Shown piece after piece: positions 14,539 to 15,067 of a DNA stretch of 64,000 nucleotides. Made by a program: the position numbers and the translations under genes. The notes below the pieces were generated by a model that was given only the letters and a program-made list of their open reading frames with translations, did no database searches and was not told where the DNA came from. The stretch is from Escherichia coli (GTDB taxonomy: Bacteria > Pseudomonadota > Gammaproteobacteria > Enterobacterales > Enterobacteriaceae): assembly GCF_003790525.1 (NCBI RefSeq), contig NZ_CP033635.1; one strand, given 5' to 3'. Positions within the stretch are counted from its first letter, which is position 1. Every line of letters starts with the position of its first letter.

Positions 14539-15020
14539 ATAAACGCTCCATATACAAACAATACAGCCACGAAAGAGATGAGTCGTCAGACATTAAAAAT
14601 GAAACTTATTAAATTGTCAGAGGTCTGTATTGAGTGTTGGTTGGAGGTGGGAAGGTGTCAATTTGGCTAACTTTCTAATGCTTTCGAATTGATAGATTAA
14701 AAATCGCATAGTTCTTATTTTATTTAAAAATGAACCATGAGTTATTGTTGCTTAATAAGAAAAATATTTCTTTCAATAAGAAAATTACCATCATCATATT
14801 TAACAAAGAATAGCACTAATTGCTAAAAAAGAACTCTATTAAAACTCTTTTTCATTCATTTATGCCTTTAGGAATATTCGCTATAAAATAAGGGTTATGC
14901 TTAATGTTTTAAGAAAAATAGCAATTTCCCCTTGAATATAGTACTGGCGATGGAACGATGAATCTGCAAGCTGGCATTTAACAAGCCAGTTCTAAAAGAA
15001 GGGAAATAAGAATAACTATA

Positions 15021-15059
15021 CTCAAAAACTAACAGCCACGGTCATCATGATGTGGCTGT
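15021..15059 (-). terminator. Rho-independent terminator downstream of lsrK
   Basis: Stem ACAGCCAC/GTGGCTGT with loop, followed on the minus strand by a T-rich run, 9 nt after the lsrK stop. Confidence 0.55.
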
Positions 15060-15067
15060 CAATGAAA

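Follow-up and report, generated by a model that had tools for sequence, protein, structure and literature searches.

A probably H-NS-silenced promoter island with a MarA site upstream of the yneO-type autotransporter gene of Escherichia coli SMS-3-5

The 64,000-nucleotide stretch of Escherichia coli SMS-3-5 DNA analyzed here (the window) contains a 529-bp spacer, at positions 14539-15067, between the stop codon of lsrK and the ATG of an autotransporter gene. The first-pass annotation had described it as non-coding and, in agreement with this, the ORF list contains no ORF longer than 30 aa within these limits. Both flanking genes are encoded on the minus strand: lsrK occupies positions 15068-16660, with its TAG stop codon at 15070-15068, and the autotransporter ORF, of 1626 aa, occupies positions 9658-14538, with its ATG at 14538-14536. 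In the direction of transcription, the spacer therefore follows lsrK and precedes the autotransporter gene. As a whole, it is orthologous to positions 1598087-1598616 of the K-12 genome (NC_000913.3), where the counterpart of the autotransporter gene, named ECSE_1600 family by PGAP, is the pseudogene yneO (formerly ydeK/ydeU).

The product of this gene starts with an ESPR extended signal peptide (Pfam ESPR, residues 1-47, E = 3e-14; 14398-14538 on the minus strand, start codon included), followed by autochaperone and pertactin domains. Since the ESPR matches from residue 1, the start codon is credible. A GGAG Shine-Dalgarno, read from the sequence at 14546-14549 (minus strand), 7 nt 5' of the ATG, is invariant in the eight strains aligned. 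The SMS-3-5 gene is a truncated pseudogene ('incomplete; missing C-terminus' according to PGAP), as are those of K-12, H10407 and an O157:H7 strain (4/8 strains), and the gene is annotated as intact in AR_0077, 88-3493, GN02270 and HB-Coli0. Part of the regulation may thus be vestigial in SMS-3-5, K-12, H10407 and O157. The searchable literature yielded no work on the function or expression of this autotransporter. When its N-terminus was searched against species-representative genomes, only two matches were retrieved, on contigs labelled Nanosynbacter and Marinomonas. JARKOR010000214.1, from a 'Candidatus Nanosynbacter' MAG, carries the autotransporter at 98% identity plus the spacer with its marbox (see below), and NZ_JSEO01000039.1, from 'Marinomonas sp. 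SBI8L', carries the autotransporter at 89% identity; both contigs probably represent E. coli contamination in the assemblies. On the 3' side of the SMS-3-5 autotransporter gene (window ~8440-9660), we observed a partial helix-turn-helix gene of 267 bp, a hypothetical gene of 21 aa and a fimA-like gene; the corresponding K-12 position is occupied by hipB-hipA, so that SMS-3-5 apparently lacks hipA.

The spacer had also been described as strongly AT-rich. Its GC content of 0.314 (31.4%), compared with 0.476 (47.6%) for the 64-kb window, is lower than expected by chance: just 0.08% of the window's 529-bp stretches are as poor in GC, the minimum of 0.310 corresponding to the stretch that starts at 14491. 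In the core of the spacer (14680-14900), GC content falls to 0.244. A direct repeat had been pointed out as well, and AATAAGAAAA does occur twice on the plus strand, at 14754-14763 and 14775-14784, 21 bp apart (feature span 14754-14787). However, repeat search, simulation and alignment place this A/T repeat at chance level: an exact direct repeat of at least 10 bp arises in 40% of composition-matched first-order Markov simulations of the region, and the second AATAAGAAAA copy reads AATAGGAAAA in four of the eight strains (K-12, H10407, O157 and HB-Coli0). The other repeats that the search detected in the spacer were only low-complexity A/T matches. AT-richness is a real feature of the spacer and the AATAAGAAAA repeat is not; location and composition were confirmed as first described, but not the meaning given to the repeat. 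We also read from the sequence a palindrome, GCTGGC-N9-GCCAG(T/C), at 14970-14990, which is largely conserved in the alignment and is followed by no T run on either strand. By eye, both of its strands have a GG-N10-GC spacing that recalls a sigma-54 -24/-12 element.

When the 729 bp around the spacer were compared with complete E. coli genomes, SMS-3-5 matched at 100% and 4,229 of the 5,426 genomes at 90-100%. The K-12 spacer is 94.7% identical to that of SMS-3-5, and most E. coli spacers are about 95% identical. The spacer is altogether lacking in about 22% of genomes; some others contain a partial spacer, or the autotransporter 5' end joined directly to an ABC ATPase gene, which suggests local deletions or insertions. 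In the alignment, 10.6% of the spacer columns are variable, compared with 1-6% in the flanking coding DNA. This variability is unevenly distributed, with 5-7% of variable columns in the proximal promoter, marbox and terminator against 10-24% in the remaining spacer blocks. The most variable block, at 14830-14870, directly adjoins the marbox; 10 of its 41 columns (24%) vary among the eight strains, compared with 5% in the marbox and core promoter, and it exists as two main haplotypes, one shared by SMS-3-5 and AR_0077 and the other of K-12 type.

At the lsrK end of the spacer, a hairpin with a 12-bp stem followed by UUUUGAG (15017-15063, minus strand) is a putative intrinsic terminator of lsrK (lsrRK operon). 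It begins 5 nt past the TAG stop codon, its predicted fold has an energy of -19.9 kcal/mol (z = -3.4, none of 200 shuffles being equally stable), and it is invariant in the eight strains. The consensus terminator scan did not call this hairpin, because its loop is long and its T run short. Most simply, its sequence suggests that it serves as the lsrRK terminator.

The spacer had been interpreted as the H-NS-targeted promoter region of a gene of the adhesin type, and this interpretation agrees with published K-12 data. Panyukov & Ozoline (2013) included the K-12 spacer among their 78 'promoter islands' as 1596197_345, ydeK(-)/lsrK(-) (PMC3661553, Table 1), with the H-NS code 'A', namely, bound in the Grainger, Kahramanoglou and Oshima data. 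The same table also counts as promoter islands the spacers that precede two other autotransporter genes, ycgV and yfaL. The island (1596197-1596541 in U00096.2) corresponds approximately to an AT-rich core of about 29% GC at 14625-14970, the conversion from U00096.2 to window coordinates being good to a few bp. Here our PWM scan detected promoter-like hexamer pairs at a density of ~17 per kb (11 sites with a score of at least 8 over a scanned 641 bp), compared with 5.3 per kb in the window as a whole at this score; a strict consensus promoter scan found 0 sites, with 2.8 expected. In a genomic SELEX study, the yneO<lsrK spacer was marked 'HNS' and yielded a sigma-70 holoenzyme peak (Shimada 2014; PMC3946193), and a sigma-S (RpoS) holoenzyme SELEX peak, of intensity 12.9, has been reported at ydeK<lsrK. 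Of the five predictors of horizontal acquisition in the promoter-island table (PMC3661553), a possibility also raised in the first-pass annotation, just one flags the spacer.

The agreement with published data does not extend to the called segments of one re-analysis. The H-NS-bound segments of Forrest 2022 at this locus (1596932-1598081) cover the first 1.15 kb of yneO and exclude the spacer, ending 5 bp short of the yneO ATG, with the next entry 17 kb away (PMC8894471). This segment list and the positive score of Panyukov & Ozoline share one ChIP-seq data set, E-MTAB-332. Comparing the GC content of the listed regions under different coordinate shifts, as a check for a mismatch of genome versions, did not account for this difference. 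A similar gap in the Forrest 2022 H-NS segments was observed at the leuL/leuO promoter island, and two other boundaries in the list, 1615763 and 1632285, fall exactly on the gene ends of yneK and ydfJ. A motif scan of the spacer for the H-NS nucleation motif TCGATAAATT gave best matches with 2 mismatches, at 14687-14698, and no enrichment. This motif is not obligatory for H-NS binding. The sources are consistent in associating H-NS with the locus, but they differ in how far they place it over the spacer itself.

For the autotransporter gene, a sigma-70 promoter, CTGACA-17-TTTAAT, is predicted at 14592-14620 on the minus strand (-35 at 14620-14615, -10 at 14597-14592), with a start expected near 14585. 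The SELEX table for the RpoD holoenzyme proposes it as the yneO promoter (PMC3946193), and it was the second-best match in our PWM scan and is invariant in the eight strains. No mapped start corresponding to it was found in the start-site data examined, and none of the entries covered from the Kim 2012 data falls within the spacer. A second promoter, TTGTAT-18-TAGAAT (14522-14557, minus strand; -35 at 14557-14552, -10 at 14533-14528), the third-best PWM match, has a mapped start at 14522 and is H-NS-repressed. Its -35 element lies within the spacer and its -10 element over codons 2-4 of the autotransporter gene. The start corresponds to TSS_1598070, detected by Cappable-seq with a logFC of 6.24 and a -log10P of 15.6 and assigned to the H-NS-bound column in the source data of Fig. 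1b, that is, up about 76-fold in the wild-type versus delta-hns comparison (PMC8894471). Together with 1597686 (logFC 4.44 in the same comparison) and 1597691, it is one of three hns-dependent starts in the yneO 5' end; yneO is not in the RNA-seq gene table of that study (PMC8894471). The Forrest 2022 Cappable-seq reads were aligned to U00096.3, and all three starts are preceded by a well-spaced, good -10 element if their coordinates refer to U00096.3, and none is if they refer to U00096.2; the -10 element 6 nt upstream of TSS_1598070 exists only under U00096.3 coordinates. K-12 position 1598070 (NC_000913.3) is window position 14522, 16 nt into the annotated autotransporter coding sequence. 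A transcript starting there has no start codon and, therefore, the full protein cannot be encoded by it. H-NS suppresses spurious initiation. The start at 1598070 fits initiation of this spurious, H-NS-suppressed kind. In a Cpx-regulon table, ydeK mRNA appears 2.2-fold up.

Within the AT-rich core lies a marbox (MarA/SoxS/Rob site), ATAGCACTAATTGCTAAAAA, at 14810-14829 on the plus strand, its centre 282 bp upstream of the autotransporter ATG. The consensus AYnGCACnnWnnRYYAAA is matched exactly at 14810-14827, and the marbox consensus AYNGCACNNWNNRYYAAA has this single match in the 64 kb, where 0.12 would be expected. The 15-mer GCACTAATTGCTAAA is identical to the site that underlies the yneO peak in MarA ChIP-seq of the ETEC strain H10407 (PMC5684230, Table 1), and purified MarA bound this site in gel shift assays at 0.3 uM, the highest affinity class (PMC5684230); the H10407 peak coordinates map onto 14810-14829. 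All nine spacer-holding loci retain the marbox, some strains with one change at a non-specific position. PWM scanning and reading of the sequence revealed, on neither strand, -35 and -10 hexamers placed relative to the marbox as in class I or class II promoters. The predicted CTGACA-17-TTTAAT promoter is ~200 bp away, and the promoter-like pairs closest to the marbox overlap it, so that bound MarA would be expected to occlude them, not to activate. The first-pass annotation overlooked both the marbox and the putative lsrK terminator, and its interpretation of the spacer was supported in part.

Several explanations of these features have to be weighed. The marbox raises the question of whether MarA or its paralogues SoxS and Rob, rather than H-NS, might be the main regulator, H-NS being secondary; the marbox would then activate or counter-silence the autotransporter promoter, or drive or repress an unannotated transcript. 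The site is perfect and conserved, it is bound in vivo and belongs to the top affinity class in vitro, and other MarA peaks also fall in SELEX-marked, H-NS-bound spacers (e.g., yjjP/yjjQ and yjcB/yjcC). However, 282 bp separate the marbox centre from the ATG and ~200 bp separate it from the predicted promoter, no canonical class I or class II geometry was found, the adjacent promoter-like pairs overlap the marbox, and expression data tying MarA to yneO were not found in the literature. We consider this explanation unlikely in either form. The related idea that MarA, SoxS or Rob would act at the marbox as a stress-triggered counter-silencer of H-NS, or would control an unannotated spacer transcript, seems to us equally doubtful.

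Still less probable is that the spacer is decaying DNA beside an often inactivated gene, its AT-richness and protein binding following from composition and not from selection for a regulatory role. The pseudogenes in four of the eight strains, the excess of variable columns in the spacer (10.6% against 1-6% in flanking coding DNA) and the deletions and partial spacer matches that differ between strains would all fit such decay, and any AT-rich DNA is expected to show promoter-like hexamers and H-NS binding. Nevertheless, the gene is annotated as intact in AR_0077, 88-3493, GN02270 and HB-Coli0, conservation is clearly higher in the proximal promoter, marbox and terminator than in the blocks between them, and a full marbox consensus is expected just 0.12 times per 64 kb. 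A small RNA or a small protein encoded in the spacer, already raised in the first-pass annotation, is by far the least probable explanation. The spacer does contain several ORFs of 12-30 codons and is bound by RNA polymerase in vitro, but a permissive Rfam scan gave only matches at chance level, the best reaching 17.7 bits for a gathering threshold of 70, and none of the 37 full-length matches listed (out of 4224 matching genomes) has an annotated feature inside the spacer, one touching lsrK. There is no promoter-plus-terminator pair, the sole terminator-like hairpin being that of lsrK; folding z-scores in the core range from -1.4 to +1.5; and the 3'-end mapping supplement of Adams 2021 (PMC7815308) has no yneO or lsrK entry. 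Concerning a protein, the ORFs are either broken in many strains or show an amino-acid change at nearly every substitution among the eight strains, and the 30-aa ORF on the plus strand has a stop at codon 21 in five of them; this comparison gave no indication that any of the ORFs is under selection. Rfam, the annotation of the matches, folding and ORF comparison thus lend this suggestion no support.

We favor, with good confidence, a different explanation, namely that the spacer is the regulatory region of the yneO/ydeK-type autotransporter gene, largely silenced by H-NS. Read along the minus strand, it would comprise the lsrK terminator hairpin, then ~350 bp of 24-29% GC that would be H-NS-bound, recognized in vitro by sigma-70 and sigma-S polymerase and rich in hexamers as a promoter island, with one high-affinity MarA site inside, and finally a conserved proximal segment with the predicted sigma-70 promoter, the Shine-Dalgarno and the ATG. 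H-NS filaments across the spacer and the gene 5' end may keep transcription low. Published work on the orthologues of K-12 or ETEC has demonstrated the binding of H-NS, polymerase and MarA and the hns-dependent start, and the same binding and start would be expected in SMS-3-5. Any assignment of the promoter that serves the autotransporter gene, or of an effect to MarA at the marbox, is likewise inferred. The H-NS-bound promoter island is already published for K-12 and the MarA site for ETEC H10407. The locus represents a textbook-style case of a cryptic adhesin gene preceded by AT-rich DNA that is covered by H-NS, and it is catalogued for K-12. Two points are potentially useful, namely, that its only mapped hns-dependent start is inside the coding sequence and illustrates spurious initiation, not productive expression, and that a high-affinity MarA site is present within a silenced spacer; if counter-silencing or a spacer transcript were true, it would tie the antibiotic and oxidative-stress regulon to the expression of a surface adhesin.

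In pathogenic E. coli, H-NS represses autotransporter adhesin genes such as upaC, upaG/ehaG and upaH. Like them, this locus combines an AT-rich region 5' of an ESPR-type autotransporter with silence under laboratory conditions. Marbox promoters of the mar/sox/rob system are reportedly of class I and class II (Martin et al. 1999). The yneO site resembles them in its full consensus and in that MarA has been reported to bind it both in vivo and in vitro (PMC5684230), but it differs in lying ~280 bp from the start codon, without class I/II geometry. Compared with the xenogeneic silencing of AT-rich genes by H-NS, in which spurious internal promoters are suppressed (Forrest et al. 2022; PMC8894471), the locus is similar in having hns-dependent starts in the gene 5' end, the first of them internal to the coding sequence, and dissimilar in that the called segments lie over the gene 5' end and not over the AT-richest spacer. 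Among the promoter islands (PMC3661553), the K-12 orthologue is itself an entry, described as AT-rich, with dense promoter-like sites, bound polymerase and H-NS, and poor transcription; it is the same locus in another strain, ~5% diverged, from which the SMS-3-5 spacer differs in nothing substantive.
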